A stretch of 59,935 nucleotides of DNA, taken from positions 6,574,702 through 6,634,636 of the forward strand of contig NC_057749.1 in assembly GCF_004010195.1 (NCBI RefSeq). The letters run 5' to 3'. This DNA is from Chiloscyllium plagiosum (taxonomy: Eukaryota). Below are positions 1 to 55,000 of the stretch, in pieces (position 1 is the first letter of the stretch; each line of letters begins with the position of its first letter). Under the pieces are notes generated by a model that did not search any database, was not told the origin of the DNA, and saw only the letters and a list, made by a program, of their open reading frames with translations. Both the position numbers and the translations under genes were made by a program.

Positions 1-180
1 CCCCACTGACCTATTGTACTCTATGCTACTCTATCCCCAACCCCACCCTCCTCTAGCTTATCTCTCCACGCTTCAGGCTCTCTGCCTTTATTCCTGATGA
101 AGGGCTTTTGCCCGAAACGTCGATTTCGAAGCTTTTCGGATGCTGCCTGAATTGCTGTGCTCTTCCAGCACCACTGATTC
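1..180 (+). mobile_element. Penelope-type element 3' end / pseudo-LTR fragment (family A)
   Basis: Contains cctgatgaagggcttttgcccgaaacgtcga followed by the ggatgctgcctga..tgctgtgct..tccagca tail that recurs many times in the window. Confidence 0.7.
94..121 (+). ncRNA. Minimal type I hammerhead ribozyme core (family A)
   Basis: CUGAUGA-A-GGGC(UUUU)GCCC-GAAA-CGUC: complete catalytic core, 4-bp stem II, ACGU palindrome in place of stem III, GUC cleavage triplet. Confidence 0.75.
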
Positions 181-745
181 AGAAGGAAACCACTATACTC
201 ACTACTGCAGCCTTTCTCTTGGACAGACTTAAAACAACGATTAACTTATCTGATTCTGTGCTGTGAACTTCACCCACAGTTCCTCCAAGATTAATTGTGA
301 ATTTCACTGTTTGTTAATTTTCCCAGATGCACTCCGACGTCCAGCGATACACGAATTCAAACAGCAAAGACAGTAGCTGTGCAGGTTCTCTCTCTCTCTC
401 CCTGTCTTGCTCTCTCTCTCTCTCCTGCACTGTCCACTCTTCTCCCTTTTAAAACTGCTGTTGTTTTGACTTTTGTTTCCCCCAAAGTTCCAAAACAATG
501 CAACAGCATATAAAACAGTAATTGCTGCTCCTGGAATTTGAGTAAATCACCTCCAACACCTAAAATACCTCAAAAAAAGGAGCATTTCTTACAGCCAGAA
601 ATTTTTCCCCTCCTCCATCTTGGATTTGTTAGGTGAAGGGGTAAATGTAGAGGAATGGGTCTGGGTGGGTTGCTTTTCGGTGGGTCGCTGTGGACTTGTT
701 GGGCCGAAGGGCCTGTTTCCACACTAAGTAATCTAATCTAATCAA

Positions 746-1830
746 GATGGGCCAACTGGCTGAGAAGTGGCAGATGGAGTTTAATTTAGATAAATGTGAG
801 ATGCTGCATTTTGGGAAAGCAAACCTGAACAGGAGTTATACACTTAATAGTAAGAGTTGAAACTTTATTGCTGGAACAGCACAGCAGGTCAGGCAGCATC
901 CAGGGAACAGGAGATTCGACGTTTCGGGCACAGGCCCTTCTTCACGAATAGTAAGATCCTAGGGAGTGTTGCTGAACAAAGAGACTTTCGAGTGCAGGTT
1001 CTTACTCCTTGAAAGTAGAGTTGAAGGTAGATAGGGTAAAGAAGAAGGCGTTTGGTATGCTTTCCTTTATTGGTCAGCATATTGAGTACAGGAGTTGCGG
1101 CTATATAGGACATTGGTTTGGCCATTTTTGGAATATTGCGTGCAATTCTGGTCTCCTCCCTATCAGAAAGATGTTGTGAAACTTGAAAGGGTTCAGAAAA
1201 GATTTATAAAGATATTGCCAGGGTTGGAGGATTTGAGCTACAGGGAGAGGCCGAATAGATTAGATTAGATTCCCTACAGTGTGGAAACAGGCCCTTCGGT
1301 CCAACCAGTCCACACTGACCTTCCAAAGAGTAACCCACCCAGACCCATTTCCCTCTGACTAATGCCCCTAACACTACGGGCAATTTAGCATGGCCAATTC
1401 ACCTGACCTAGGCTGGGGCTGTTTTCACTGGAGCATCAGAGGCTGAGGGATGACCTTATAGAGGTTTATAAAATCATGAGGTGCATGAATAGGGTAAATA
1501 GATAAGGTCTTTTCCCTGGGGTGGGGAGTCCAGAACTGGAGGGCACAGGTTTAGGGTGAGAGGGGAAAAGATATAAAAGAGACCTAATGGGCAACATTTT
1601 TCATGTAGAGGGTGGTATGTGTATGGAATGAACTGCCAGAGGAAGTGGTGGAGGCTGTTACAATTGCAACATTTAAGAGGCATTTGGATGGGGATATGAA
1701 TAGGAAGGGTTTGGAGGGATATGGGCCAGGTGCTCATAGGTGGGACTAGATTGGGTTGGGGTATCTGGTCGGCTTGGACGGGTTGGACCGAAGGGTCTGT
1801 TTCTGTGCTGTACATCTCTTTGTCTCTGAC
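746..1830 (+). mobile_element. CR1/HER1-like LINE 3' fragment, interrupted by a Penelope-type insert (855-946) and an antisense HE1 fragment (~1255-1408)
   Basis: RT C-terminal relics (WQMEFNLDKCE, LEYCVQFWSP, RLRDDLIEVYKIMR) and the typical 3' tail gaagggtctgtttctgtgctgtacatctc. Confidence 0.85.
855..946 (-). mobile_element. ~92-bp Penelope-type insert carrying a hammerhead core with one substitution
   Basis: TSD aatagtaag at 846-854 and 947-955; minus strand reads AUUC-(G)UGAAGA-A-GGGC(CUGU)GCCC-GAAA-CGUC-GAAU. Confidence 0.75.
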
Positions 1831-6829: not shown

Positions 6830-7780
6830 TTCTCGTACAGCACCTTGTCAAAGGCCTTCTGGATTTCCAAATTGATCATAGACTCCTTCAGCTTTGTCCA
6901 ATTGCTCAGTACCTCCTCAAAGAATGGTTTCTAAAATCTTACCAATAACAGAGTTCAGGCTAATTGGCTGGCAGTTTCCAGTCTTCTGCGCATCTCCCTT
7001 CTTAAACAGGAGTGTTACATTAGCTACGTTCTAGTCCTCTGGCACCCTTCCTGACTGCATTGATTCCTGAAAGACCACCACCAATGTCAGTTATCTCCTT
7101 CAGAACTCCGGGTTGCAGTCCATCTGGTCCGAGTGATTCATCCATCTTCAGAACTTCCAACTTCCCCAACATCTTTTTCTTCATGATGGCCACTACACTC
7201 ACTTTTGCCTCTGACTCCCTTGAAGTTCTGGTATGCTGCTGCTATCTTCTGGGAGAAAGTGAGGACTGCAGATGCTGGAGATCAGAGTCGAGAGTGTGTT
7301 GGTGGGGAAGCACAGCAGGTCAGGCAGCATCTGAGGAGGAGCAGGAGAATCAACGCTTTGGACATAAGCCTTTCATCAGGAATCAGCCCTTCCTGATGAA
7401 GGGCTTATGCCTGAAACGTCGATTCTATTGCTCCTCGGATGCTGCCTGACCTGCTGTGCTTTACCAGCAACACACTCTCGACTGCTGGTGTCCTCCACTG
7501 TGAAAACTGTTACAATGTACCTATTCAGTTCCTCCATCATTTTTTTGTTCCACATTGCTATTTCTCCAGCCTCATTTTTCCATTGACTCAATGTCCACTA
7601 TTTATTGCATTTCTCTCTTACCTTGTAGACATCTAAAAAAAGCTCTTGCAATCTTCTTTCATATTACTAGCTTGCTTACTCTCATATTTCATCTTCTCCC
7701 TCTTTATGACTTTTATACTCATCCTCTGCTGGTTTTAAAATGCTTCCCAATCTTCTGGCTTCCCACTGATTCAGGGTTAA
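6830..7780 (-). mobile_element. CR1 ORF2 internal fragment
   Basis: Minus-strand GPDGLQPGVLKE and MMEELNRYIVTVFTVED relics of the RT N-terminal region. Confidence 0.75.
7251..7485. mobile_element. Inverted-pair Penelope-type cassette (family A); + strand hammerhead core at 7393-7420
   Basis: ~100-bp inverted arms centred near 7385; CUGAUGA-A-GGGC(UUAU)GCCU-GAAA-CGUC. Confidence 0.75.
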
Positions 7781-7979
7781 TGTAGTAGTGAATTGGGGTG
7801 GGTCACACTGCATGTGATGGAAGATGTTGCCGGTAACACTGAGAGTGGAAGACAGCCTGTGCCCTGGCGAGAGGGGGGGCGCGGGAATGCGAGAGAGCAG
7901 AGAGAAAGAGTGAGTGTGAGGCACCTGAGAGAGGATGGTGACACCGAAGCTGGTGGTGTGGCAAAGAGCCTTCTTCCTA

Positions 7980-8699: not shown

Positions 8700-9870
8700 T
8701 AATTTTTGGTCAGACTTTTGGAATACAGCATAGAATTCTGGTCTCCCTGCTAAAGAAGGATGCTGTGAAACTTGAAAGGGTGCAGAAAAGATTTACAAGA
8801 ATGTTGCAAGAGTTGGAGGGTTTGAGCTATAGGGAGAGGCTGAGGCTGTTTTCCCTGGAACGTCGGAGGCTAAGAGGTGACCTTATAGAGGTTTATAAAA
8901 TCATGAGGGGCATGTATAGGGTGAATGGACAAGATCTTTCCCCAGAATGGGGGGAGTTCAAAACTCGAGGTCATGGGTTTAAGGTGAGAGGAGAAAGATT
9001 TAAAAGGGACCTAAGGGGCAATTTTTTCACACAAAGGTTGGAGGGACAATGTTTTAGGCATAAGCCCTTTCATTAGCCCTGATGAAGGGCTTATGAATGA
9101 AATGCTGACTCTCCTGCTCCTCGGATGCTGCCTGACCTGCTGTGCTTTTCCAGCACCACACTTTTCGACTCTGACTCTCCAGCATTTGCAGTCCTCCCTT
9201 TCTCCTTACAGGGATATGGATCAAATGCTGGCAAATTGGACTTGATTAATTTAGGATATCTGGTCGGCATTGGACAAGTTAGACCGAAGGGTCTGTTTCT
9301 GTGCTATACAACTCTCTGGCTCTATGACTGTGAGATATGGTGTGAGTTTTCTCCTTGCCTCACAGTGATGAACCCTCTAAAAAACTCAACAAAGATTTAC
9401 AAGGATGTTGCCAGGGTTGGAGGATTTGAGCTTTAGGGAGAGACTGAATAGGCTGGGGCTGTTTTCCTTGGAGTGTCAGAGGCTGAGGGGTGACCTTATA
9501 GAGGTTTATAAAATCGTGAGAGACATGGATAGGATAAGTAAACAAAGTCTCTTTCCTGGGGTGGGGGAGTCCAGAACTAGAGGGCATAGGTTGAGGGTGA
9601 GAGGGGAAAGCTATAAAAGAGACCTAAGGGGCAACATTTTTGTGCAGAAGGTGGTACGTGTATGGAATGAGCTGCCAAAGGAAGTGGTGGAGGCTGGTAC
9701 GATTGCAACATTTAAAAGACATCTGGATGGGCATATGAATAGGAGGGGTTTGGAGGGAAAGAGGCCAGGTACTGGCTAGTGGGACTAGATTGGGTTGGGG
9801 TATCTAGTCGGCATGGACGAGTTGGACCAAAGGGTCTGTTTCCGTGCTGCACATCTCTGTGACTCTATGA
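8700..9870 (+). mobile_element. Two tandem CR1 3' fragments; the first has a family A Penelope-type insert (~9040-9205)
   Basis: ORFs 8765..9076 and 9405..9779 are CR1 RT C-terminus (LERVQKRFTRML, RLRGDLIEVYKI). Confidence 0.88.
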
Positions 9871-11411: not shown

Positions 11412-11850
11412 GAGGCATGGTGGCTCAGTGGTTGGCACTGCTGCCTCACAGTGCCAGGGACCTGGGTTTGATCCTGCCCTCAGGTGAATGACTGTGTGTG
11501 TGTGTCTGTGTGTGTGTATTCCTCTGGGTGCTCTGGTTTCCTCCAGCTGTCCAAAGTTGGGCCACTTACTTCAAAACATTAACTCTGAACTCTCTCCTCA
11601 GTTGTCGCCAGACCTGCTGAGCTTTTCCAGCAATTTGTGCTTTTGTTGCCAAAGATGTGCATGTTAGCTGGATTGGCTGTGCTGAATTGCCCATTTGTCC
11701 ATGGATTTGGTGGCTAGGTGGGTAGTCATGGGAAAATGCAGAGTTGCAGGAAGAGGGTAGGAATTGGGTCTTGGTGGGATGCTGTTCAGACGTTTGGTGT
11801 GGACTCAATGGACTGAATAGCCTGCTTCCACACTGTGCAGACTCTGTGAT
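11412..11850 (+). mobile_element. HE1-like SINE with an internal Penelope-type (family C) fragment at ~11570-11650
   Basis: SINE head and tail flank aaacattaactctg...gacctgctgagcttttccagcaattt. Confidence 0.75.
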
Positions 11851-14064: not shown

Positions 14065-17000
14065 AGGAAGATGATGGCCTTGAAGTATTATCACTAGACT
14101 ATTAATACCGAGACACAGATAATGTTCTGGGAAGCCAGGTTTGAATCCTGCCATGGTGGAATTTAAATTCAATATTGTTTAAAAAATAAAAATCTGGAAT
14201 TGAGGATCTACTGATGAGCGTGAAACCCATCTGGTTCACAAATGTCCTTTCAGAAAGGAAACTGCCATCCTCGCCTGGTCTGGTCTACATGTGACTCCAG
14301 ACCCACAGCAATGTGATTGATTCTCAGGAGCTCTCTGAAATGGCCCAGCAAGCCATTCACTTGCACCAATCACTACAAACTCTCAAACAAATGAAACTGG
14401 GTGGATTACCAGACATCGACCCAGGCACCGGAAAGACTATGGTAGAAACAGCCCTGTTGACCCTGCAAAGTCCTCCTTACTAACATCTGGAGGCCCATGC
14501 CAAAATTGGGACAGCTCTCTCAGAGACTTGTCAAGCAACAGCCTGATATTGTCATATCATGAAATCATACCTTAAGACCATGTCCTAGACACCACCACCA
14601 CCATCCCTGGGTATGTCCTTTCCCACTTACAGGACAGACCCAACAGAGGTGGTGGCCAGTTGGGAGACATTTGGGAGAGAGCTTTTCTGGGAGTCCTCAA
14701 CATTGACTCCATTCCCCATGAAGTTTCATGGCTTCAGATATAACATGGGCAAGGTATTGGTCAGAGCATTGAGTAAACGGGTTGGGAGGTCATGTTGTGA
14801 CTGTACAGGACATTGATTAGGCACTTTTGGAATATTGTTTGAAATTCTGGTCTCCCTCCTATAGGAAGGATGCCGTGAAACTTGAAAAGGTTCAGAAAAG
14901 ATTTACAGGGATGTTACCAGGGTTGGAGGGTTTGAGTGATAGGGAGATGCTTAATAGGTTGGGGCTGTTTTCCCTGGAGCATCGGAGGCTGAGGGGTGAC
15001 TTTATAAAATCATGAGCGGTGTGGATAGGGTAAATACACAAGGTCTATTGTGGGGTGGGGGAGTCCAGAACTAGAGGGCATAGATATAAAAGCGACCTAA
15101 GGGACAACTTTTCCATGCAGAGGGTGGTACTTGTATGGAATGAGCTGCCAGAGGAAGTGGTGGAGCCTGGTGCAATTAAAACATTTAAAATGCATCTGAC
15201 AGATATATGAACAGGAAGGGTTTAGAGGGATATGGGCCAAGTGGGACTAGATTAATTTAGGATATCTGATCAGCATGGAGGTATTGGACCAAAGGGTCTG
15301 TTTCCTTGCTGTACATCTCTGTGACTCTATGAAACCTCTGCTGATTACCCCCAACTGTCCTCCCACAGCTGATGAATCAGTACTCCTCCATGTTGAACAA
15401 TACTTTGAGGAAGCACTGAGGATGGCAAAAAGTACTCTGGGTGGGGGGATTTCAACGCCCACCACCAAGAGTAGATCAAACTGGTTAGGTCCTGAAGGAT
15501 GTAGCTGCCAGACTGGGTCTGCAGCAGGTGATAAGGGAACTAACTGCAGATGTATCTGTCCATGACAGTATTGGTAAGAGAGACCACCGCACAGTCCTTG
15601 TGGAGATGAAGTCCCACCTTCACATTGAAAATACCCTCCATCGTGTGGCACTATCATCACGCTAAATGGGACAGACTTCGAGCTGATCTAACAACTCAAG
15701 ACTGGGTATCTATGAGGCTCTGTAGGCCATCAACAGCAGCAGAATTGTTCTCCAGCACAATCTGTAACCTCATGGCCCAGCATATTCCTCACTCAACCAT
15801 TACCATCAAGCCAGGGGATCAACCCTGATTCAATGGATAGTGCAGGAGGGCATGCAAAGAACAGCACCTGACATACCTGAAGATAAGTGAGGTTACCAAA
15901 CAGGATTACTTACATGCCAAAAAACATAAGCAGCAAGTGATAGACAGAGCTAAGCGACCCCACAACCAATGGATCAGATCTAAGCTCTGCAGTCCTGTCA
16001 CATCCAGACATGAATGGTGATGGACAATTAAGCAACTCATTACAGGAGGAGGCTGCACAATTATCCCCATCCTCAATGATGGAAGAATCCAACACATTAG
16101 GGCAAAAGATAAGGCTGAAGCTTTCACAGCAATCTTCAGCCAAAAGGGCCGAGCGGTTGATCCATCCCGGCCTCCTCCAGTGATCCTCAGCATTACAGAG
16201 ACCAGTCTTCAACCAATTCTGTTCACTCCATGTGATCTTAAGAAATGGAGGCACTGGATACTGCAGAGGAGACAGGCCCTGACAACATTCCATCCATAGT
16301 GCTGAAGACCTGTGCTCCGGAAGTTGCTGCTCCCCTAGCCAAGCTGTTCCAGTACAGTTCCATGATTGGTTCCACCCAACAATGTGAAAAATTGCCCAGG
16401 TAGACCCTGCGCATAAAAAGCAGGACAAATCCAACCTAGTCAATTACCGTCCCATCATCTCAGTCATCAGGAACGTAATGGAAGTTGCCATCAACAGGTG
16501 CTATCATGCTGCACCTGTTCAGCAATAACTGCTCAGTGACTTCCAGTTTGGATTCTGCCAGGGTCACTCAGCTCCTGACCTCATTCCAGCCTAAGTTCAA
16601 ACCTGGACAAAAGAGCTGAATTCTAGAGAGGAGGTGAGAGTGTCAGCCCTTGACATCAAGGCTGCATTCGACCAAGTGTGGCATTAAGCGTCGGACGTTG
16701 AGGGGTGACCGTAGAAAGGTTTATAAAATCATGAGGGGCATGGTTAGGGTGAATAGACAAGGTATTTTCCCTGGGGTGGAAGTCCAGAACTAAAGGGCAT
16801 AGGTTTAAAGTGAGAAAGGAAAAATTTAAAAGGGTCCTAAGGGGCAACTTTTTCACACAGAGGGTGGTGCTGAATAGAATGAGATGACAGACTAAGTGGT
16901 AGAGGCTGGTACAATTGCAACATTTAAAAAGCATCTAGATGGGTGTAGGAATATAAAGGATTTAGGGGGTATGGGCTAAGGGTTGGCAAATGGGACTAGA

Positions 17001-20357: not shown

Positions 20358-20850
20358 GTAGAGTCATAGAGCTGTATGGTATGGGAACGGACCCTTTGGT
20401 CCAGCTCAGCCGTGCTGGCCAGTTATCCTTAATTAATCTAGTCCCATTTGGTGCATATCCCTCTAAACCCTTCACATTCATATAACCATCCAGATGCCTT
20501 TTAAATGCTGTACTTGTACCAGACTCCACCACTTCGTCCGGCAGCTCGTTCCACACATGCACCACCCTCTGCATGAAAAGCTTACCCCCTTAGATCCCTT
20601 TTAAACCTTTCCCCTCTCACCTTAAACCAAAGCCCTCTAGTTTTGGATTCTCCTCCCTAGGAAAAAGAACTTGGCTACTCACCCTATCCATGCCCCTCAT
20701 GATTTTATAAACCTCTGTAAGGTCACCCCTCAGCTGCAAATGCTCCAGGGAAAAAATAGCCCAAGCCTACACAGAGCACCCCCTCTGTAACCCAGTCCTG
20801 GCAACATCCTTGTAAATCTTTTCTGCACCCTCTCAAGTTTAACAACACTA
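20358..20850 (-). mobile_element. CR1 3' fragment
   Basis: MQRVVHVWNELPDEVVE on the minus strand. Confidence 0.85.
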
Positions 20851-25295: not shown

Positions 25296-25851
25296 TGTTA
25301 AGAGTGGTTAGAATGAGGCTGTGACATGAGTTAGATGTTTTTGTTCGAAACATTGACTTTCCTGCTTCTCGGATGCTGCCTGACCTGCTGTGCTTTTCCA
25401 GCACCACATTCTTGACTCATGAGGTAGAGAGGTTGATGCAATTAGTAAGGATATACTGAAGGAGTAACATGGGAAAGAAAAACGGAAACTAAGAGCAGGA
25501 GAAGGCTGTTTGGCCCTTTGTGCCTGATCTTGGGATTGAACAGGTAGCGTCCTTACTCCTGAAACAGAAGCTCTTGGGTCAAGTCCAATTCTGGGACTTG
25601 ACAACCAAGGAAGGTGCATTCATAATGCAGCAACCCAGGTTATGAGTTAATCTGTGAATCCTTCTAGCATAACGCTAAAGGCAAGCAGCTAGATTAAAGG
25701 AGAAAGCTGGTACCTCGCCCATTAGTATCAGTGGTTCCAGACTGTATGCAAATGGTGCCACAGCAACTCAAATTCCTTAATGAAGGTAGGAGGTAGGGTC
25801 AATTGGCGGGATGGCCGGTCTGCATTAAGTCAGAGCCAAAAGCATTGGGTT

Positions 25852-40000: not shown

Positions 40001-43000
40001 GAAGTCAAAAGTAAAGGCAGTCCTGATGTGAACTTAATAATGGTCTTCACTTCAGTAGGTCTCAGGCAGTGCAAGTTGTATATTCAGTAGTCAGTTTTAA
40101 CATAATCTTGATCTCCAGGTTCAAAGGAACTTTGAACAGAAGCTGTAGAACCAAAAATAACCATTGCCACACAGACCCACCAGGGTTTCCCTTCTTACCT
40201 AATCCCAAACAGCAAAACCTCAACTTCTCTGCATTTATCAAACAATACAGGAGTAGCTTCCAAGGGACAGAGAAGAAAAACCAAACAGCTTGATATTCTT
40301 CGATCAACAAAATTCGGCAGCAGTGAGATTTTCTTCCAACTGCTTCAGCCACTTATAGATTAAATACATGAGCAGAGCCTGTGATGCGATACCCTTTTCT
40401 ATGTCCCAGTGGATGGAGCTGGTGTCTTGGGTCTAATGATCTTTATGTGGTATGTACTTTATGTTTTTAGGTTGCTAAGCAACAATGTCCATTAAAGGCC
40501 TGTCTAAGTGCAGGCATTTTGCTTGAATTCCACAGTAATAAAATAGCCCACTATAGTTCATGGTGGTTTCAGGATCAGATATTAAGTGAGAACTAATTGA
40601 ACAATGTTTTGCTGTGTGTAACCAATTGTAATTTGATAACAGGAGGAGATAGCAACAGCCTGGAAGGTGGCAAGGATTGAGCCAATGGTACTCAGGCTGA
40701 GATTTTCTCTGTCTCAGTACCTGGATGGACCTGGTAAGTAACGAGTGTGAATTTTGCTAAACATTTTTCCTTGAAATTTTCTCGACTGAATTCTATAGTT
40801 GACTCACTGACTTTTTGTTATTTGCTTATGGGTTGTGGGCTTTTTTGGCTAGGCCAGCATTTATCACCCATCCCTAATTGCCCAGAGGAGTCACACAAAT
40901 TGCTGTGCGTCAGGAGTCACATGTAGGCCAGATCCAGTAAGGATGGCAGTTTCCTTCCGAGAGGGCATCAGTGAACCAGATGGATTTTTCTGACAATCAA
41001 TTCATGGTCACCATTAGACCCTTAGTTCCGGATTATTTATTGAATTCAGATTCGACCATGGTGGGATTCGAACCCAGGTCTCCAGAGCATTAGCTGAGTT
41101 TCTGGATTAATATTCTTGTAATAAAATCACTAGACCATTGCATTGTAGGCAAATCACAGGCCCTAATAACACACATAGGCCCTAATAACACACTCTGTGG
41201 GGAGATGGTGATGTAGTGGTAATACGAGTGCCCTTAATATCACCAAAGGCTCAGTCTAATGGACATGAGCTCAAATTGCATTACAGTAGCTGGTAGCATT
41301 TCAATTCGGATTAACAAATCTGGAATATGAAAGCAGTCTCTGTAATGGTAATCATGGCATCCATCATTTTGTTTTTTATTTAAAAAATGTACTTTATTCA
41401 TAAAAAAATTCATTATATATATATACAAAGTCACAAATGCAGTTCGGTTCCGTACAGTAGCATATCAAGGAAACAATCAAACATTGGAATTTGATTCTAC
41501 CCAAACAAATTAAAGGTGTCTCTTACTTGAACCAGACTATATTTACATGCATTTGATGCATGAGATGGGTCTGATAACTGAACGGACCCCAATTTACCTT
41601 TGGCAGAAAGACCTCAGACAGTGGGCTTTCCCCATTGCGCCTTGGCAGCAGCTTCCCAACGCTTTAGTGCATCCCTCAGCACGTGGTCCTAGCTATCATT
41701 TAATTTTCTTTAAAGTTTCAAACATATACTTTATTCATAAAAAATATCTTTGTATATATACATAGTCGCAAACATAGTTCGGCTTTGTACCATTGCATAT
41801 CATTGGAACAACGCAAACATTGGAGTTTGACTCTATCCAAATAGACCACAAACCTCTCTTACACATACAATACTATATTTACATACATTTATTGTTGTAA
41901 AACACACCTATTCACTAATGCTTTGGAAAGGAAAGGTCCCAAAATAAATTGGTCTGATTCACATGTGTCTCCTGGTCAATGTTACTTTTGAACTCATTGT
42001 TGCCTTCTGTAATGGATGTGTTCAAGGGCAATTGGAGATGCTGACCTTGTTAACAACCCCCACATAACTTGATAACACGTAAATACTGCAAATCAGCAGC
42101 AATTAGTTTCTCTCTGTCTCCATCCTTTGCAGATGATAATACGACATTGAGTAAATTATATGTTGCTAATTATAAAATCTGTTTTATGCTTTATCTGTTG
42201 AGCTATTAAGGGCTGATTCATTTCTTGGGTAAAATACCTTTTCTTATAGGTGCATAAATACATTCTAATAATTTACTTTAATGCAATTTATTTTCCATGC
42301 AAAATGATCGCAAGTTGTTTCACAGATGTGTCATTCACTGTGGAATTATTCACCACTTTAACATATCTCAGGTTTATGCCCATTGCTCCATATCCCCAAT
42401 ACCTGTCAGGTGAGTGGAACCAAACATTGCCCATGTAGTTGAAACTTTGCTGAGATTGGCTTCCAACCAGCATGGACTTGATGGGCCAAAGGGTCTTCAT
42501 CTGTGCTGTAGATCAGTGATTGATTGATTTATTGTCAAGTGTGCTGGAGTACAGTGCAAAGCTTTGTTTATGAACAGTACAGGCAGATCATAGCAAGCAA
42601 GCATGTAAAGATCAAAAACACTTAGGTAGAAGCATACAGATTACATGCACAGGACATGCCCAAGGCGACATCAGTGTTAGCAAGATCAGTTTTACTTGTG
42701 GCTGATAATGGCTGTATGCCTCTATGACTGTAAAAAAATGCAGCTTCCTTTACTGCTATTTGCACTAAGACACATTGTGAGATTTTCTGAGCAAGATAAT
42801 ACTGCAATCTTTAACTTCTATTTATATTATCTGATTTACAAGACCAAGTTGTTATGGTTCTGTTCGCCGAGCTGGAAGTTTTTGTTGCAAACGTTTCGTC
42901 CCCTGGCTAGGCGACATCATCAGTGAATGGGAGCCTCCTGCGAAGCGCTTCTTTGATGTTTCCTCCGGTGTTTATAGTGGTCTGTCCCTGCCGCTTCCGG

Positions 43001-46000
43001 TTGTCAGTTTCAGCTGTCCGCTGTAGTGGTTGGAATATTGGGTCCAGGTCAATGTGTTTGTTGATGGAGTTTGTGGATGAATGCCATGCCTCTAGGAATT
43101 CCCTGGCTGTTCTCTGTCTGGCTTGCCCTATGATAGTAGTGTTGTCCCAGTCAAATTCATGTTGCTTGTTGTCTGCGTGTGTGGCTACTAAGGATAGCTG
43201 GTCGTGTCGTTTCGTGGCTAGTTGATGTTCATGTATGCGGATTGTTAGCTGTCTTCCTGTTTGTCCTATATAGTGTTTAGTGCAGTCCTTGCATGGTATT
43301 TTGTACACTACATACGTGGAGCACCAATAATGTTTTTGTGGTGTTAACTGAAGGAGAGGGGTGGGGGACCAATCTTTCCTCCTCATTAAAAAAAAGAGTA
43401 GCCACTCATAATTAGTTGTGAGATTTTGCTGTGCACAAAATGGCTGCCACATTCCCCATATTTTTGAATGAGTTCACTTCTATGAGGTTCTTTGAAGAGC
43501 GTTGCAGCAAAAATGTTTCTTGGAGTAGCAAGCCTTGCTTCTTCCCACCTCTCAGTTGTTCAATGGTAAATTCTGGTGAATTTAAAGAGTGTTCAAAGTT
43601 AAAAATCACACAACACCAGGTTATAGTCCAACAGGTTTAATTGGAAGCACGAGCTTTTGGAGCACCACTCCTTCATCAGGTGGTTGTGGAGGATACAATT
43701 GTAAGGCACAGAATTTATAGCAAAAATTGACAGTGTGATGTAACTGAAATTATACATTAACAATAATTTGATTGTCTGTTGAGTCTTTCATCTGTTCAAA
43801 TACCATGATAGTTTCACTACTTTCATGTGTAAATCACAAAACCTTTTTTTAAAAGTTGCATTCTCGATTAGCTGTAACAATTGGTGTTAGCTCGACAATA
43901 TGTTGAAGGTGTTGGCCCCCTGTGTTCTCTGTCTATGCCATGATGTTTTGATTGATTCTAATCTAAAAAGTGAGATAACAGAGTTTTATATGAATTCATG
44001 CAGTACAATGTAACCCTGCAAGTACAAATTCACCCCACAAAGTATATGTGCGCATGTGGGTCTTTGTGTCTGTCTCTGTGTGTGTCTGTCTGGGTTGGGG
44101 ATTGTGAGTGTGAGAATGTGTATGCGTGTGTGTAGTGAGTGCAGAGTGTCTTAAGTCTGTGAGGGGGTGCATGTGTGAGTGTGGGTTTGAACAAGACCAA
44201 GTCTTTAAAGACGACTGACATTTTCTTTCGAAAAGGTTATTCTTTCATGGGATGTGGGTGTTGCTGGCAAGGCCAACATTAGTTCCTCCATCCCTAATTG
44301 CCCTATGACCTGGATGGCTCGCTCAGTGATTCTAAGAGGGTGGTTCAGAGCTAACTACTTTGCAGTGGCCCTGGAGTCACGGGTAGGTCAGACTGGGTAA
44401 GGTTGGCAGACTTCCTTTCCTGATGGGGAACAGATGAAAGTTTCATGGTCACCATTGCAGAAATTAGCTTTCAATTCCAGTTTGATCAATTCATTATATT
44501 TACATTCCCCCATAATGGACTTTGAACCTGTAATCTAGGCCTCTGCATTACTCTCTGTGAGTCAGCATTTATTGCCTCAAGGCTAATCCTGTTTCTTCCC
44601 CTCAGATGATCTGTAAAATATTTTCCAGCATTTTCTGCTGTCATTTCAGAACTCTACTTTTTTCGATTCAAACCAAAATTGTGTGGATTCAAGTTCCCAG
44701 TGAGGACTAAATCCTGTCATCCATGTTGATACTCCAGTGCAGAAGATGGAAGATCTGTCTCTTGGATAAGATATTCATTTGAGAGTTTCTTTCCAATCTA
44801 ATAATATGGAGCACCAATAATGTTTTTGTGGTGTTAACTGAAGGAGAGGGGTGGGGGGTCTCCTCATGTTTTGGCCAATCTTTCCTCCTCATTTAAAAAA
44901 AAGAGTAGCCACTCATAATTAGTTGTAAGATTTTGCTGTGCACAAAATGGCTGCCATATTCCCCATATTTTTGAATTAGTTCACTTCTATGAGTTCTTTG
45001 AAGAGCGTTGCAGCAAAAATGTTTCTTGGAGTAGCAAGCCTTGCTTCTTCCCACATCTCAGTTGTTCAATGGTAAATTCTGGTGAATTTAAAGGTGTTTA
45101 AAGTTAAAAATCACACAACACCAGGTTATAGTCCAACAGGTTTTAATTGGAAGCACTAGCTTTTGGAGCACCGCTCCTTCATCAGGTGGTTGTGGAGGAT
45201 ACAATTGTAAGGCACAGAATTTATAGCAAACATTGACAGTGTGATGTAACTGAAATTATACATTAAAAATACTTTGAATGTCTGTTGAGTCTTTCATCTG
45301 TTCGAATAACATGATAGTTTCACTTCTTTCATGTGTAAATCACAAAACCTTTTTTTAAAAGTCGCATTCTCAGATTAGCTGTAACAATTGGTGTTAGCTC
45401 GACAATATGTTGAAGGTGTTGGCCCCCTGTGTTCTCTGTCTATGCCATGATGTTTTGATTGATTCTAATCTAAAAAGTGAGATAACGGAGTTTTATATGA
45501 ATTCATGCAGTACAATGTAACCCTGCAAGTACAAATTCACCCCACAAAGTATATGTGCGCATGTGGGTCTTTGTGTCTGTCTCTGTGTGTGTCTGTCTGG
45601 GTTGAGGGTTGTGAGTGTGAGAGACAGTGTATATGTGTAGTGAGTGTAGAGTGTCTGTGTGCATGTGCGTGTATAGGAGTGCCTCTGTGCGTGTGTGTAG
45701 GAGTGTCTGTGTGTGTCTATAGTGCAATGGTGGTCACCTGTAGAGTGTTGATTGTAACCCTTTGACCTAGTAGCCATTGTAATGAGACCCTCACAGTGAC
45801 CCTATTTTAATTTCCCGACAGAACCATCGGTAGATGTTTTCCAGCCATCCAATAAAGAAGGGTTTGGCCTTGGACTTCAACTGAAGAAGTGAGTACACGG
45901 GTCCAAAATAATTTCACAAAAATCGGTGATCATCACTTCATGGGATCTTGCTGAGTCCAATAGCTTTTGCACTGTCTTATTTTCAACCGTGACAACACTT

Positions 46001-49000
46001 CATTGCCTGTAAAGTGCTTTGTGATATCCTGAGGCTGTGAAAAGCATTATCTCAATGTAAAAAATTCTCTTTATATCAGAATGTTATCTTTTAAAATCAT
46101 GATTACAAGTAATTGCACAGGGATTATATGTGTAACTATATCTCTCAAAAGACAATCAAAGTCTTGCAAATGATTTGCATTTTCTGTAGGTGTCAAACTG
46201 ATCTGTAAAAACATTCCCATCACATTGTCATTAATTCCAACCCTCTATTTATAAAACTGCGTAACTTGAATCTCATCAAGCACGACCATGAGAGATCTGG
46301 CAGGGCATGTAAAACATGTGCATAATACAAAGTGAGGTCAATTTTATGGTTACCAAACATCTGATTTGAACAGGAGGGGCCATGTAAACGAAAGTGATTG
46401 GCAGCCCATTGTCTTCCTGTCACACCCCTCATGCTGCCCCCGACATAATAAAGAGAAGACCTATTAGCACGGAGATAAGGAGAAACTTCTTCAGCCAGAG
46501 AGTGGTGAATCTGTGGAATTCATTGTCTCAGAAGGCTTTGGAGGCCAGGTCATTGAGTATATTTGAAACAGAGAGAGAGAAATGCTTGATTGCCAAGGGG
46601 ATCAAAGGTTATGGGCAGAAAATGGGAAAATGGGATTGGAAAACTTATCAGCCATGATTGAATAGGGGAGCATACTTGATGGTCCGAATGGCGTAATTAC
46701 TGATGCTATGCTGTATGGTCTTATAGCAAAGGATAGCCAATGCCTTAGTAACAGCCAGCACTCCCTTAAGCCTATTGAAGTCCTTGAATGGAAATGAACT
46801 GCCACATAAGGGCCTCCTTCTATGCCGCAATTTTCCTGTCTGTGAGGGAAGACGAGAACAAGGTGAGGGCAGTATGGTAGCTCGCCATTATTACGATCCC
46901 AGCTGATATTAGATTAGATTAGATTAGATTAGATTTTTAGATTAGATTAGATTACAGTGTGGAAACAGGCCCTTCGGCCCAACAAGTCCACACCGACCCG
47001 CCGAAGCGAAACCCACCCATACCCCTACATTTACCCAGAGTGAAATCTGACTTGTTAGATCTTAAATTTGTATTGTTTATATCAACCCAGCTCCCAAAAC
47101 TAAGATAAGCAAGTAAGACTTTTTTGGACCAAAGGAGAAAGTGAGGATTGGAAATGCTGGAGATCAGAGTCAAAACATGTGGTGCTGGAGAAGCACAGTT
47201 GGTCAGGCAGCATCCGGGAACAGGAGAGGTGACATTTTGAGCATAAACTCCTTCCTGATGAAGAACTTATGCTTGAAATGTCGACTCTCCTGCTCCTTGG
47301 ATGCTGCCTGACTGGCTGTGCTTTTCCAGCACCACATTTTTTGACTCGATATTTGGGACAAAAGTCCAGGTACGACTTTTACATGAGATGGACAATTACT
47401 TGTACAGGTCCTGACCAAAGGATGCAGGTGATGGAGTAGGCGCAGCTCCCGAGAAAAGTCTTAACCATTTGTTGGGAATGGAGATGACCGTGAGATGTTT
47501 GTGTGAAGACGGTCAGTGTCCTTTGTTGGTCCTTTTTGCAGAATCCTAGGAATGTTCACATCTCAACAGTGGAAGCACCTAAGCAACGATTTCCTGAAGC
47601 GCCAACAAGAGAAGAGGCAGAGCTGGTTCAAGTCGAGCAGTCGAGTGAAGAAATTCCGATCTGGGCTCAGCATCTTCTCGTCAATCCCAAAGTAAGGGGA
47701 ATCGTGGGCTAGGTGCAAAAATGATAGTGTTAAGGGCAGCATCGTGTGATTCTCGATAGAGAAAAGTCACCAACCATAAATGCTTCGAAGTGTCAGCACT
47801 TGGCTGCCTAGCCACTGAGATATCTTACCTTTTTCCCAATCTCTAAATGTATTTAGGACTAACGTAGGAAAGTGTTTGAAGAAAATGGACATTAAAAAAA
47901 AACAAATTAAGTGTTGATTTCTCTTCTTGCAACAGCTTCTAGGGCCCTAATCTTTAATCCTGGGAGGTTCCAGGAAAATCTCCGAAGGGTGGCTACCTGC
48001 AATCGGGTATTTTAAAATATACGATTCCATTAATTAACATAGGTAAGTGTTGCCAATAAATGCTGACCCAGCCAGAGATGCTGACATCCCATAAGAGAAT
48101 AGAAAAGTAGGAAGAGTTCCGTTGGCTTCTTGGGTAGAATCCTTCCTTCTGAACCAGTGGCCTGCGGTTCGAGACTCAATCTAGGATTTGACGGAGGAGA
48201 GAGGTGCATTCATGACATATCCCAATCATTAATGTGCAAGTCCTGCCAACGTATTAGTGGTAGGGCTGGGAATGTCTTTTAGTCAGCTATACTCAGTCTG
48301 GTGTGGCACCTTTCCCGCGATGGCCTCTAATGGTAGCTGACGGCCTGGTCTAGGTAAAATGAGTGTCAGAAACAACCATTGCTGCCTCTGTCCCATGCAA
48401 TTCTAGATATGGGAAGAGACTCAAAAAGAATTGATAGAGTCTTTTCCATACTAAGAAACAATTTAGTGAAAATCCTACTAACACTGAACTGATGACTTCC
48501 TTCTGTAGGAGCACTAAAATATTGCCATTGCTGATAGGGTCATTGATGAGTGGTTAACGCCATTGACAATTGTGAAGTAGCTGTCCATGAAAAGCGAAAT
48601 GTAGATCTTACCCTCTGATGACAAAATGACGCAGAAGAAGGCCATTCAGGCCATTGTGCCTGTACCGGCAGCTCAATGTTTGTATCATCCTGCCAACTGA
48701 TAAAACAATCTCTCCACCTCTTGTTCCAGATCTCCAAGTTTCCCCCTCATTCAGGACTCCATGCTGAAGAGCAAACTCGGGGTGCCAGATCTCCGAGTCA
48801 ATCGCATCATTAATCGTTCCATCTCTTGCACCATGAAATCGCCCAAAGTGGAACTCCTTGGAATCCCCTCAGCTAATCAGGCAAGTTCCCCCCCACACCC
48901 CACCCTCCCTCACCACCTCTGTAATGTAAAGTCAAAATGAAGTTACCACAGCTCAAGAGGAGTATAGGGGTGCCGTCTCATTAGAGAGTGTTATGGATCA

Positions 49001-52000
49001 GAGCAAACCACCTCAAAATATATTTAAAAAGATAGCCTGTACCGTAATGTTTTCTTATTTTAAAGGTAAATGTGAGATGTTGCATTTCAATTGGTCAAAC
49101 TACCAGATTTAAAGTAAAACACACTTTATTCATCCACTATAGTTAAAATACAATGAACAAAGAACTAAGAAAATTACAGCACAGAAACAGGCCCTTCACC
49201 CTCTAAGCCTGCGCTGATCCAAATCCTCTCTCTAAACCTGTCGCATGTTTCCTAGGTCTGTATCCCTTTGCTCCCTGCCCATTCATGCATCCATCCGGAA
49301 TGAAAGAAATGGAATAACTTAACGCTGTTGGAAAATTTGGTAACTGTGACTAATTAACTGTTCCAATATAGTAACATCCCATAACCCCTTGGCAAAAAGA
49401 CACATTCAGGAACCAGATTATCTCACGTGCAACTCCCATGAGAGAGTGAAAAAATTAGCTTTCACTGCTTCAAGGCCTCCAGTAGCAACTGCTGAGAGCT
49501 AAAGCTAAAAATCATGGATCTGCGAGAGCTCGATCACACCCATTCAGGCTGCTTCTATTGTTCCAACTTTGAAAAATTCACCCAAGGCCTCACAAGTTGG
49601 TTATCTTCTCATAGACTGCTAATTTTCTGGCCCCAATCTCTTTCTACAAGAAACCAGGGCAAAACGCACCTCTGAAAGCCACAGTATCATCACAAGAGAG
49701 ATGACTGATGATTAGTTTAAACTGATGGTCAATGTACTTAAGCCAAGGGGAGAGGTTGAGAAGAGGTTGGGATTTTCATGGTAACCTCCGGATTTGAGCC
49801 TGTACTGTTGACATCATTCTGCATCACAAGCCAGCTCTCCAGCCAACTGTGTAAATTATCTACAACTGCTGGCTCGTTTAAGTAGATAGGCGATGCATTT
49901 ACGCAACCTGGATAACTCAAAGCTTTTCACAGTTTATGACAAACAATGCTAAGCCATTTGAATTGTGTTCATTTTAAGGTGAAAGGCACCCCCAAGTGAT
50001 GATTATGTCTCAGCACAGATTGTTCAGAGTGATAGTGACCAACAATGATAAATCATTCAATAATAAATTATATTCCACAATTCTCACTATATTCTCCCAG
50101 TGGAATAGCTGAGCAGCGTGGTGGCTTAGTGGTTAGCACTGCTGCCTCACAGCACCAGGTGGTTGGGTTTTCTCCCACAGTCCAAAGAAGTGCATGTTAG
50201 GTGGATTGGCAATGCTAAATTGCCTCATAGTGCTAGGTGCATTAGTCAGAGGGAATTGTGCTTGGGTGGGTTACTCTTCAGAGGGTCAGTGTGGACTTGT
50301 TAGGCCAAATGACCTGTTTCCACACTGTAGGGAATCTAATCTTAAATACTTGGATTCTCCTTGCTCTGTTCCATCACAGTGGAAAACAGTTGTGATACGC
50401 CAAAGGAGAATTGCGCATGGTCAAAATGCATTTTTGTGTGTCTGTGAGCTTATAACTTATTTTACAGTTCAGCAAGAATCCAATTTAAAAAAAAAAGCAA
50501 AAGTAAATCTGAAACAAACACAGAGAATGCTAAAGCAGCTCAGCAGATCTGGCAGCATCTGTAGAGAGAGAATCAGAGATAACATTGGAATCCTATGGAA
50601 CTCTTCCTCAGAGCAGGCTATTGTACTGAGTCAGAATTTTCTGAGCTGAGGCAAATGGCGATGACATAGCAGCGATGTCACTGGGTCAGAAATCCAAAAG
50701 CCTCGGGCTGTGGGTTCAAATCCCATCATGGCAGTTTATGCAATTTGAATTTGATGAATAATTCTGAAATTGAACACAAGTCTCAGGAATGGTCACCAAA
50801 ACAACTATCATTGACTGTTGAATTAACAAACTACCAGTTTCACTATTGCTCCTTGGTAAAATCTGCTTGTCCTGACCCTGGTCTGGCCTACGTGTAACTC
50901 CAGGCAATGTGGTTGACTCTTAACTGCCCTCTGAAATGGCTCAATAAGTCTCTTGGTTGAGGAGGTGATAGCCTAGTGGCATTACTGCTTGTTTTCATTC
51001 TAGTGATAATGTTCTGGAGACCTGGCTTCAAATCCCAACATGATAGAAATCTAGAATTAAGAGGCTAATGATGACCATAAAACTCTTGCCAATTATTGGA
51101 AAACTCCACCTGGTTCACTGATGACCTTTATGCGGTGTTCTTACCTGGTCTGACCTACATGTGACCCCAGACCCACAGCAATGTGGTTGGCGATTAGGGA
51201 TGGGCAATAAATATTAGCCCAGTCAGCAATGCCCATGTTCTGTGAATGCAAAACTGATACTGGCATTGTTGGTGATGCCCACATCCAATTGTTGCATTAA
51301 TGGTTAATTTATAAAACATAAAATACTTCATTTGCTGAATCTGTTACAAATTTTATCTGTTTATCCACAGGCTGGGAGCCACTGCAAGAACATTCCAACA
51401 TTAGAGTATGGCTTTCTTGTACAGGTAAACTCTGAGAAAATTGTGGCACTTATAGTCAATAATGAGCAACAAATGAATGATTTCTTTTCAAAAACGTTAG
51501 CCAATTATAATGAGACCATAAGAAATAAAATCAAGCCTCTAAAGCTTGCTCTGCTATTCAGTAAGATCGTGACTGAACTGACGTTCCTCAGGCCCATTTT
51601 TCTTCACTTTTTCCCATAACCTTTGGTCCTTCTACTGACCAAGAATCTATCTATCTCAGCTTTATGGACACTTCTTTCTTGTCAGCTCCTTCTCCTTCAA
51701 ACCCTTGCATCGAATCCCATCTTCCCAAGTTATTCTCCTTTCCGTGGTTTTCGTCTACCTCCTCAATGCCTTATGAAGACATCTGTTCATGAATGCTATG
51801 AAACAGAATTAAGAGGAAACCTATGTGTAATAATAATGGAGATCCAAACATAAATTACAATTGCAAACAAAGTGTCAATCTGTTGAGCCGTCTCTCAGCC
51901 GACTAAACTGAGGCAGGGCAGGACTTAGAACAAGCTGTCTATTTACTGAGCAAACCACATCTGTTTAAAAGAGTCTTTATGTACTACAACAGAGCTCATG

Positions 52001-55000
52001 ATCAAAATTACAGCAAAGTCTTCCGATTAGGGGCAGCACAGTGACTCAGTAGTTAGCACTGCTGCCACACAGCGTCAGGGACCCAGGTTCAATTCCCACC
52101 TCGGGTGCCTGAATGTGTGGAGTTTGCACGTTGTCCCCATATCTGTGTGGGTTTCCTCCGGGTGCTCCGGTTTCCTCCCACAATCCAAAGATGTGCAGGT
52201 CAGGTGAATTGGCCATGCTAAATTGCCCATAGCGTTAGGTGCATAAGTCAGGGGTAAATATAAGGTAGTGGAATGTGTGTGGGTGGGTAACTCTTTGGAG
52301 AGTCGGTGTGGACTTGTTGGACTGTAGGGAATTTAATCTAATCTAATTAAAAAAGGAAAAAGTTGCAGAAAGTGGGAGGACAATTACCTAATCCACAATT
52401 ATGTACAGGTGTCCCCCTCTATCTGAAAGTAGAATGTTTGTAAGCCGAAATGATGTAAAGCGAAAAAACAATTACCATTAGTTTATATTGCAAAAATCTT
52501 TCCGTGTTCCCAGACCCAAAAAAGACCTATCAAATCATACCAAATAACACATAAAACCTAAAATAACATGAATATATAGTAAAGGGCATTGGAGGTTGGG
52601 GTAGTGGAAGGTACAGGATACCTTAGGACACATCTTGCCAACAGAGGTTCAAAATAAATGGAGATAAGGCACAAATGCTCACAGGCACAGGTCAAAGCTG
52701 TGGTGGATTGATGCTGAGTGTAGTTTCCGGGGAAGGCACTTGGTGACGCCATTCTCACTGAGCACGCTTTTTTGTAAAAGCGAAGATCCTCTTCCGGTTA
52801 GTGAAAATAGGGTTGAAAGTAAGTCTTTTCTAAAAGTGACTTGGTGTAAAGCGAACTTTTAAAAAGTGGGGAATACCTCTATTTCAAATAAATCCCAGTT
52901 CATAAGGATCGAGGAGCAGAGGTGGGCCTTTTAACCCATCAAGTCTTCTCTGTCTTTCAATAAGGTCATGGCTGATTTGATAATTCTCAACAATCCATTG
53001 TCAATTGTCAGGAAAAACCATTCTGGCTCACTAAGTCCATTAGCAAAGGAAACTGCCATCCTTACCTGATCTGGCCTACATGTGACTTCAGACCCACAGC
53101 AATGTGGCTGACTCTTAACTGCCCTCTGGGCAATTAGGGATGGGCAATAAATGCTGACTTAGCCAGTAATGCGCTCATCCCATGAATGAATACTCCACTC
53201 TCCTGTCTTTTCTGTTTAACACTTAATTCCCTTATTGATTCCCTGATTAAAGATCTGTCTATCTCAGCCTTGAATTTAGTTAATGGCTCAGCTTCAAGAG
53301 TCCACTATGGTAAAGAGTTGCACAGATTCAAAAAAATTCTCCACATCTCTGTCTTAAATATATGACCCCTTATTCGGACTTTATGCCTTCTTCACCTAGA
53401 TTGTCCGACAAGGGGAAACAAACTTTCCGCATCTACCCTGTCAGGTCCCCTCAGAATTTTGGATGTTTCAATAAGGCCACCTCGAATTCTTCTAATTTCC
53501 AATAAGTATCAGCTCAAACTACTCAACCTCGCCTCATAGGACAGTCCCTCCATACTTGATAACAGACTGGTGAACATTCTCTGGATTCCCACCAATGCCA
53601 GGATATTTTTCCTTAGATAAAGGACCTAAAACTGTCCACTGTATCCAGCTGTGGTTTGACTAGTGTCTTGTATAGTTTTAACAAAGCCTCCCTAATTCTA
53701 TAGAGGGTAGTGTGGTGCTAGAAAAACACAGCTGGTCAGGCAGCATCCAAAGAGCTGGGAATTGACTGTCATCCATAATCTCTTCATAGACTTTCTCCCT
53801 ATTTCTATACTCCATCCCCTTTGAAATAAAGGCCAACATCCCATTTGCACTCCCTATTACCCAATGAAGTTGAATAGGGACTGCTAAATCCCTCTGTTTA
53901 GTCATGGTGTAGAGATGCCAGTGTTGGACAGGGGTGGACAAAGTCAGAAGTCACATGACATCAGGTTATTGTCCAACAAGTTTATTTGAAATCACAAGTT
54001 TTCTGAGTGCTGCTCCTTTGTCACGGAGGGGCAGTGCTCTGAAAGTTCATGATCTCAAATAAACCTGTTGGACCATTACCTGGTGTCCTGTGACTTCTGA
54101 CTTTGTCCCTCTGATTAGAACAGTCCTTTATAATAATATGGTCTTTAGGCATGACTGCTGGAGAAATTACCCAACCGTCTCCATTCTAGTCTGACTTTGT
54201 GAAATATCCTAGTCAAGATGACTGTTCTTTGGGCATCTTGTGAGGAAGCTGTGTCCGCGTTTTGAGACTGTTATGAGGAAAGGAAGGACTCTTGGCCACA
54301 AAAAACAATTCAAAAATCAAAGTAGTAAAATCCTCAAGAATACAGTGAGTTTGTTGTGGGTAGATCAGCACAAATTAAATTTAATTCAGCTACATATTAA
54401 GAAATCTCACAGACAATCAAATATTGAAGCAATAGTTTAATTTTTATTGCATGTAGCTACCTAAATAAGACCCCCTCAAGTAAGCAAGTTAAGTTTCACT
54501 ACCCAACTTGGCTATTTCTCAATTAATGATGAAATCTGGCCAAGACTTTACAAGCAGTGTCTGTCTCTGGAAGCGTCTTTATGCAGTGTTCTTCGAAGTT
54601 CTGCTATTGACTAGTTTTGGTGTTGGATTCTTGTGCAATTTTCATTTTTTCAAGTTTGTGGTGTGACATTATTGATAATTCAATGGCTTCTTTCATTTCC
54701 AATATTTATTATTTTCCTGAGGACCTCACATCTGTAGCTTACCTTCTTATCAGAAGCAGCTCCTCTGTTCCTTTTACACTTGGAGTTAGCTGTCTGTTTA
54801 AAACACAGTCTTCCCTGCAATTAACTCTTTAAATTCTTCTGCAGGGCAATCCTTGTCCTTTGTGGTAATACCACATCCAGTTTATTAAGCAATTTTATTT
54901 CTGTAAACATGCCAAGACATGGCTCATTGCTTTCAGTCTCAGTGTTAAACCTTGTCTTTGATCTTTTCCTCTCAAGAAACCGCTTACTCCAGACAGAGAT

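Follow-up and report, generated by a model that had tools for sequence, protein, structure and literature searches.

The 59,935-nt stretch of the Chiloscyllium plagiosum genome analyzed here, called the window below, carries three short repeat families (A, B and C) and one coding fragment (D), each with a minimal hammerhead ribozyme motif resembling those of Penelope-like elements (PLEs). All copy, motif and repeat counts come from this one window. BLAST of each unit against the window, combined with alignments, recovers 22 arms or remnants: 13 of family A, three of C, five of B and one of D. Our strict descriptor consists of CUGANGA, an optional unpaired base, a stem II of 4–8 bp with a loop of 3–6 nt, and then GAAA, after which paired positions 15.2/16.2, U16.1 and H17 are required. 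A structure-aware parse of the whole window gives three matches to this descriptor, at 94-121(+), 7393-7420(+), which has a G.U closing pair, and 39491-39519(-). The expected mean is 0.008, and 4 of 500 dinucleotide shuffles had at least one match. Five further sites deviate at a single point: C3 is G at 918-945(-), ACGU reads ACAU at 38911-38938(-), one G.G mismatch lies within the 7-bp stem II at 42890-42923(-), and GAAA has become AAAA at both 43651-43679(-) and 45157-45185(-). Sites with no more than one deviation number eight, against a mean of 0.13 in 60 dinucleotide shuffles, and all eight fall within families A, B and D. Exactly two deviations are seen at six sites, against a mean of 1.58 in 60 shuffles; two of these belong to the families (30652-30681 and 47255-47282), and the other four (2851, 10708, 25096 and 52979) are background-like. 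The hammerhead motifs in this window are real and not a product of chance.

The four motifs differ most in stem II, which reads GGGC/GCCC (4 bp) in A, GGAGC/GCUCC (5 bp) in B, GGGUC/GACCC (5 bp) in C and GUCGCCU/AGGGGAC (7 bp including one G.G) in D. Pair 10.3-11.3, for example, is G-C, A-U, G-C and C-G in A, B, C and D, respectively, and pair 10.4-11.4 is C-G, G-C, U-A and G.G. This comparison is taken from a direct structural parse, because MAFFT alignments of the motifs misplaced stem II and shifted family B. In the best copy of all four families stem II is closed by G10.1-C11.1, and A9 is followed by an unpaired nucleotide, which is U in D and A in the other three families. Neither the bulge nor the closing pair is demanded by a search for CUGANGA, GAAA and a stem, yet both are found in every family, and both are hallmarks of PLE hammerheads according to Cervera and de la Peña 2014 (PMC4209133). 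No helix III hairpin is present. Its place, together with H17, is taken by ACGU-C in A, AGCU-A in B and ACGU-U in D; family C now reads ACAU-U, having lost both the palindrome and G12 through CpG decay. Helix I, a short stem of about 3–5 bp in PLE minimal hammerheads, has two of three possible pairs in A (UUC/GAU) and D (UCA/UGC) and all three in B (CAC/GUG) and C (GUU/AAC). The published >80% consensus for metazoan PLE minimal hammerheads runs NNN, CUGANGA plus H, G-stem-C, GAAA, N, palindrome, N, U, H, NNN (PMC4209133, Fig. S3), and A, B, C and D all agree with it, allowing for CpG decay in C.

Family A is the most abundant. A solo arm with the short 3′ end lies at 93-174(+) and holds the intact motif 94-121 with loop UUUU. 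The solo insertion at 849-946(-), which begins 1 nt ahead of its motif (918-945, with G at C3), is flanked by an exact 10-bp target-site duplication. The foldback at 7252-7487 joins, head to head, a long arm, 7252-7380(-), whose motif at 7352-7379 is decayed, and a short arm, 7392-7487(+), whose motif 7393-7420 is intact. The copy at 9048-9209 combines a long arm, 9079-9209(+), whose decayed motif occupies 9079-9106, with an inverted stub, 9048-9076(-), that adjoins an unrelated abundant repeat (family E). Two arms are 5′-truncated: the short arm 25354-25422(+), cut inside the motif and flanked by an 11-bp duplication with one mismatch, and the long arm 36734-36832(+), cut in stem II and sitting inside a family E repeat. 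A candidate variant stem II at 36715(+) was rejected, as that stretch belongs to the host repeat E. The foldback at 38854-39006(-) lies within one 13–14 bp target-site duplication and pairs a short arm with motif 38911-38938 (CUGAAGA, ACAU) with an inverted long partner 5′-truncated at +61. In the foldback at 47132-47347, the long arm 47132-47254(-) begins 5 nt into the core, and the short arm 47254-47347(+) carries the two-deviation motif 47255-47282. Finally, a solo short arm with a decayed motif lies at 53709-53792(-), within a 15-bp duplication with one mismatch. An open reading frame runs through the family A arms but is no more than chance would give.

Family C is represented by an arm at 11572-11647(+), 5′-truncated inside stem II, and by copies at 30540-30729(-) and 50506-50640(-). 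In the last of these, the motif (50580-50611) is decayed and has a different stem II that is still largely paired. The copy at 30540-30729 holds two motifs in direct tandem, 48 nt apart, with stems II GAGUC/GACUC and GGGUC/GACCC, both paired. One of them, 30652-30681, has two deviations, AAAA and CAUU, both of which are CpG-to-CpA changes; the second, at 30698-30729, is more decayed. A partial extra unit lies at 30542-30583, and there are no full repeated units. This tandem is a layout in which two minimal motifs in one RNA could pair via their palindromes. A block of about 33 nt, located some 20 nt 3′ of the motif, is common to families A and C, which differ in their spacers and stems II. A and C are sister families, which gives three lineages in the window. 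A 19-nt query for relatives of the block in metagenomes returned 48 loci, none similar beyond 33 nt, and all were set aside as chance.

Family B comprises a solo long unit at 39394-39529(-), with the intact motif 39491-39519, a start 10 nt before C3 and a 9-bp duplication identified by eye; two short units at 43587-43689(-), with motif 43651-43679 (AAAA for GAAA), and 45094-45195(-), with motif 45157-45185, the second being a segmental duplicate of the first; and a head-to-head foldback at 53900-54106. The foldback has a long arm, 53900-54018(-), and a short arm, 54027-54106(+), both truncated 6–7 nt into the core, and is flanked by a 13-bp duplication with one mismatch. The local segmental duplication, 43360-43900 and 44860-45400, has one family B unit in each copy and D at the edge of the lower copy. 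Outside the motif, nothing alignable is common to A, B and D.

These results bear on an initial annotation of the window made from the sequence alone. Every hammerhead site that it quoted was found at its position, by direct reading as well as by the descriptor parse, and the core positions that it had bracketed as altered in family C are exactly the two deviations, AAAA and CAUU. Its estimate of more than ten copies or remnants is borne out by the 22 counted. Other claims need revision. The four sequence-distinct families that it proposed reduce to three lineages, given the block common to A and C; D, which it treated as a repeat family, occurs only once in the window; and a palindromic helix III, described as invariable, is missing from the present copies of family C and from 38911-38938.

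The insertion anatomy of A and B follows a consistent pattern. Units measure about 100 or 135 nt, and A, B and C units contain the motif plus about 60–100 nt downstream only. A target-site duplication score of at least 9 was obtained for 5 of 14 insertions, against 14 of 2000 in the null, at 849-946, 38854-39006 (at least 11 bp as scored, 13–14 bp by eye), 53709-53792, 25354-25422 and 53900-54106. At 36734-36832, a duplication of about 10 bp is indicated by the overlapping coordinates of the split halves of host repeat E. Duplication lengths vary from 9 to 15 bp. Five copies are head-to-head inverted pairs, or foldbacks. A single duplication surrounds both arms at 38854-39006 and 53900-54106, and approximately so at 47132-47347; since the duplication, where seen, encloses both arms, each foldback represents one insertion event. 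The 3′ ends, counted from the predicted scissile bond, fall into two classes. In family A they lie at +53 to +70 (seven arms) or +98 to +101 (four arms), with the reference arm 9079+ ending at about +103 as set by eye; in family B they lie at +59 to +65 (three arms, two of them independent) or +97 (one arm), the +97 class being that in which the reference 39519 was placed by eye. Long arms owe their length to an extra 3′ piece, which is a fixed 33-nt sequence in A and measures about 36 nt in B. Each of the four complete foldbacks combines a long arm with a short one, and the difference between them is 33–38 nt.

Truncation always strikes the motif side of a unit and never the tail side, with starts at +27, +27 and +61 in family A and, in the arms of foldbacks, at +5 to +7; the motif therefore lies at the 5′ end of the template. 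Untruncated A arms begin between -4 and +5 relative to C3 (eight arms, local alignment); where duplications mark the start, it falls at about -1 and -6 in A and at -10 in B. Alignments of the A and B copies in the window revealed no LINE-type (long interspersed nuclear element) tails, no SINE (short interspersed nuclear element) promoter heads and no fixed terminal inverted repeats. For PLEs, high 5′ truncation, an adjacent inverted 5′-truncated copy and a tail of 30–40 bp, often at one end only, have been described, as has integration in which both DNA strands are cut and extended and reverse transcription starts at two internal sites 3′ of the hammerhead (Craig 2021, PMC8557442, and Frangieh 2024, PMC11167929, both in excerpt). 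The anatomy of A and B matches these published features. As a separate observation, the family A foldbacks at 7252-7487 and 47132-47347 give sub-threshold Rfam matches to microRNA precursors (MIR1144, 35 bits; mir-980, 29.4 bits; MIR3627, 25.5 bits). Foldback insertions of this sort could be mistaken for, or become, hairpin sources of small RNA, and can mimic microRNA precursors in annotation.

The coding link to PLEs is provided by D, at 42802-43314(-). It comprises the tail of a GIY-YIG open reading frame (42907-43314) and the hammerhead 42890-42923. The frame encodes 135 amino acids plus a stop, opens with the GIY-YIG signature and contains a C-x2-C ... H-x-H pattern (VYKIPCKDC...IHEH); a CCHH motif is described as universal to PLE endonucleases (PMC8557442, in excerpt). 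Reading frame and ribozyme overlap at 42907-42923. The terminal codons, Thr-Asp-Asp-Val-Ala, supply the CUGAUGA box together with the 5′ side of stem II, with CUGAUGA spelled by Thr-Asp-Asp and the stop codon in loop II. Homologue P0002 ends in ...STEDV; its Thr-Glu-Asp would still encode CUGAAGA, so that the residue change would fall on N7, the sole free core position.

A search of longer proteins with the D frame found 15 homologues, the best of which, 86–87% identical to it in their C-terminal ends, come from the orectolobiform sharks Chiloscyllium punctatum, Hemiscyllium ocellatum, Stegostoma tigrinum and Rhincodon typus. Precomputed annotation places PF26215 on nine of the 15, and PF00078 as well on five of those nine. 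The D frame aligns to residues 330-462 of the 463 in P0002, which has RVT_1 at 30-159, and is 52% identical to the metagenome protein P0010 over the GIY-YIG stretch of the latter. P0010 has both RVT_1 and GIY-YIG, the Pfam GIY-YIG score being 24.6 bits, above the cut-off of 22.6. In P0002, P0010 and P0013, RVT_1 lies upstream of the aligned region. The 5′ side of D is cut off within the duplicated host segment. Its 3′ end is placed tentatively at +88 by strict alignment to the paralogous duplicate (3 of 300 shuffles align as well). Judged from these alignments, D is a putative 5′-truncated autonomous PLE with its hammerhead at the end of the reverse-transcriptase/endonuclease frame. A hammerhead on the 3′ side of this frame is the arrangement that Cervera and de la Peña 2014 (PMC4209133) describe for PLEs. 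Three annotated shark gene models, P0005, P0007 and P0011, which represent isoforms of MAP3K7, NT5DC1 and CUEDC2, contain stretches 69–92% identical to the D endonuclease fragment, which suggests that predicted exons have taken up PLE pieces.

With respect to conservation, the initial annotation had held that the core is kept while stem II co-varies. Between families, where the relevant signal lies, this stands, since stem II differs yet still pairs: A, B and D, unalignable elsewhere, have a constant core, and the core and 33-nt block are both kept in A and C while the spacers drift. Within family A the excess is slight, with identity to the majority over seven arms of 0.895 in the core versus 0.82 downstream, where the last columns of the alignment run past the ends of the short arms into flanking DNA. 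The best-kept stretch of family A is in fact the block common to A and C, not the core. Many losses in the core are CpG transitions at C11.1-G12 and C15.2-G16.2, and the inserted copies look neutral. Neutral inserted copies do not refute function, because selection acts on the master copies.

The motifs are very probably minimal type-I hammerheads of PLEs, with D derived from an autonomous element and A, B and C being short non-coding passengers or 3′ modules. The association with PLEs had already been put forward in the initial annotation, and is substantiated by the D frame, its homologues with RVT_1, the insertion signatures of A and B and the fit to the published consensus. For A, B and C, the likeliest role is that of non-autonomous passengers or minimal 3′ modules, which the PLE reverse transcriptase/endonuclease would copy. 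The motif excess, the link to the open reading frame and the insertion anatomy are direct observations; mobilization in trans, the start sites of reverse transcription and any cleavage are inferred. In such a scheme, the PLE protein would cut both DNA strands, and cDNA synthesis would begin inside the RNA, at one of two sites that lie 3′ of the hammerhead cut by about 63 or 99 nt. Copying would then run through the motif to the 5′ end of the RNA, a few nucleotides upstream of the motif. The products would be solo arms or head-to-head pairs with a tail of 33–38 nt on one arm and a duplication of 9–15 bp. In the master copies, selection would keep the motif, with a constant core and with stem II compensated between families, and any cleavage would occur only when two motifs pair via palindromic ACGU or AGCU standing in for helix III. 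The inserted copies would decay neutrally, fastest at the CpGs within the motif.

Several observations weigh against this interpretation. Rfam gives no match to the window at gathering score, and there is no hammerhead family among its 11 matches at E<=10; such silence is expected of motifs that lack a helix III hairpin, yet it counts as a negative result. Within family A the core is not clearly better kept than the remaining alignment, the last columns of which are partly flanking DNA. Helix I is weak in both A and D, and full-length A units begin about 4 nt before C3, leaving hardly any 5′ strand for helix I; a helix I of 2 bp has a precedent in D. virilis (PMC4209133). Monomer folds are no more stable than those of shuffles (z of -0.65 to +0.39 for four and -1.13 for one), by nearest-neighbor models that are unable to judge a 4-bp intermolecular helix III. 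As RNA, the foldback 7252-7487 is predicted to form a hairpin of -160 kcal/mol (z = -15.5), which would bury the motif. On the D frame itself, Pfam GIY-YIG scores 16 bits (E 0.015), below the cut-off, and no reverse-transcriptase domain is found inside the window. The reverse transcriptase is missing at the D locus because this copy is 5′-truncated. BLAST and alignment detect no sequence that A, B or C have in common with the 3′ region of D, so the case for their dependence on a PLE is made from insertion anatomy only. Published work also counsels caution: in vitro activity is low even for dimers (PMC4209133; review PMC6765202, in excerpt), and for the Anolis PLE, whose ribozyme is itself active, the excerpted account reports that ribozyme-dead mutants still insert in vitro and that no RNA-seq reads end at the cut site (PMC11167929).

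Alternatively, the hammerhead fold might serve mainly as a recognition or positioning "ruler", by which the PLE reverse transcriptase sets its two start sites, and not as a working self-cleaver in these short elements. We regard this as a possibility to be held tentatively. The 3′ ends of two sequence-unrelated families lie at one and the same pair of distances from the motif; unit starts are found shortly before the motif and not at the predicted cut; family A has a minimal helix I; and the excerpted Anolis results (PMC11167929), insertion with ribozyme-dead mutants and no reads ending at the cut, would be as expected. However, the families retain the catalytic nucleotides (CUGANGA, GAAA, U16.1, H17), not all of which binding alone would require, and the palindromic 15.2/16.2 points to dimer formation. 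The tentative 3′ end of D at +88 fits neither class, and the sample amounts to 18 arms from one window. Less likely still is that A, B and C are retrozymes lacking long terminal repeats (non-LTR retrozymes), whose tandem-array masters cleave as dimers and circularize, the dispersed copies being monomer offspring. According to the excerpted preprint of Li et al. 2026 (bioRxiv 10.64898/2026.07.22.740005), animal retrozymes carry type-I hammerheads and may, as has been proposed, derive from PLEs as non-autonomous elements; tandem retrozymes were detected in the sole chondrichthyan sampled. Family C at 30540-30729, moreover, does combine two motifs, spaced 48 nt apart, with a third, partial unit. 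Yet the window holds no array of two or more full A or B units, and copies begin upstream of the motif instead of being permuted at the cut site, as recircularized units would be. At 100–135 nt, the units are also shorter than the 363-bp average of that sampled chondrichthyan (same excerpt).

Two further explanations fare worse. A and B might be LINE-dependent SINEs, or foldback miniature inverted-repeat transposable elements (MITEs), that merely contain a hammerhead-like string. LINE and SINE debris is plentiful in the window, and the foldbacks are MITE-like, down to microRNA-like Rfam matches of 35, 29.4 and 25.5 bits, all below gathering score; we nonetheless consider this origin very improbable. 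The units lack a tRNA, 5S or 7SL head, and their 3′ ends are neither A-rich nor microsatellites; the two foldback arms have the same 3′ end, differing by a discrete tail; the variable 9–15 bp duplications that solo arms have of their own are unlike those of a cut-and-paste element with fixed terminal repeats; and the motif fits all hallmarks of PLE hammerheads that lie outside the descriptor. That the motifs are chance matches in AT/GC-biased repeats would agree with the silence of Rfam and with the four two-deviation matches outside the families, which are at background (1.58 expected). We judge this to be next to impossible, given three perfect matches where 0.008 were expected, and given that the unrelated families A and B fit the strict descriptor while D, one stem II mismatch short of it, adjoins a PLE reading frame.

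Returning to the PLE interpretation, the window families can be compared with several known systems. Metazoan PLE minimal hammerheads (PMC4209133) have the same consensus, a reverse-transcriptase/endonuclease frame on the 5′ side, as in D, and mostly dispersed single motifs, with nearby opposite-strand pairs noted there too. Unlike those elements, the commonest window families are only about 100–135 nt long and begin at the motif, and the 4-bp stem II of family A is shorter than the 7–8 bp typical of Schistosoma. Relative to the hammerheads in Rfam, including Hammerhead_1, the window motifs have the same catalytic core without the helix III hairpin, loop-loop contacts or long helix I. The Poseidon element PAc of Anolis carolinensis (PMC11167929, in excerpt) similarly involves cutting and extension of both strands and two adjacent internal start sites. 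In PAc these sites lie about 85–92 nt downstream of the hammerhead cut, compared with about 63 and 99 nt in A and B and, tentatively, 88 nt in D, and the stretch between them is an optional genomic tail. The hammerhead overlaps the boundary of the open reading frame in both PAc and D; the PAc frame starts in stem II, whereas that of D ends in the motif. Non-LTR retrozymes (Li et al. 2026, in excerpt) resemble A and B in being non-autonomous, in their type-I hammerheads and in their kinship with PLE pseudo-LTRs; unlike these elements, which are defined by tandem arrays, A and B in the window are solo or inverted and never in direct tandem. The short non-autonomous Penelope elements of Heliconius (PMC6685494, in excerpt) offer a precedent for short, non-coding, high-copy PLE derivatives.

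Earlier work reports PLEs from every vertebrate lineage and also from the whale shark (PMC4350176 and PMC8455134, both in excerpt). No chondrichthyan is among the 40 species in Fig. S3 and the Table S1 text of PMC4209133 (supplementary file 1 was not covered), and in literature on shark or chondrichthyan PLE hammerheads and non-autonomous PLEs we found no description of these families (the supplements of the 2026 preprint were not covered). The finding is thus a known association, that of PLEs with hammerheads, here in a shark; the shark families are new and have an unusually minimal, hammerhead-first architecture.

A few other features of the window deserve mention. Family E, unrelated to the hammerhead families, is a repeat of about 330 bp or more with roughly 14 copies, for example at 8700-9041, 1126-1603, 9391-9640, 14823-15127, 16689-16867, 20562-20847, 26388-26669 and 33153-33484. 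Two family A insertions lie in or beside it, and at 36734-36832 the host E halves overlap by about 10 nt. An open frame at 59589-59933(+), which runs off the end of the window, matches Pfam Exo_endo_phos (45.3 bits) and probably encodes a LINE endonuclease. A weak and probably accidental match to the CPEB3 ribozyme model lies at 25592-25665(+); it scores 23.2 bits (gathering score 35; E 0.096), and its first helix includes non-standard pairs.

The role of the hammerhead in PLEs is unsettled, with published cleavage being weak and insertion proceeding in vitro without catalysis. It is conceivable, though we would put it no higher, that the motif plus about 100 nt constitutes the minimal PLE-mobilizable unit, with the hammerhead fold anchoring the measurement of two internal start sites. 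If so, the unrelated families A and B would have converged on one architecture, starting 4–10 nt before C3 and ending at about +63 or +99; such passengers would be natural minimal substrates for settling the role of the ribozyme in PLEs; and, should this window prove typical, such hammerhead-first units would rank with the most frequent repeats in orectolobiform sharks. The shark units consist of the motif and the reverse-transcription entry region, in a fixed geometry realized in two unrelated sequences. Because they are stripped down to these parts, they are compact natural test substrates, with which one could ask whether cleavage, or the fold alone, is needed for mobilization, and whether distance from the motif sets the start sites. 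More broadly, unclassified repeats make up 10.8% in the whale shark (PMC8455134, in excerpt), and these families would explain part of the unclassified repeat fraction of shark genomes.

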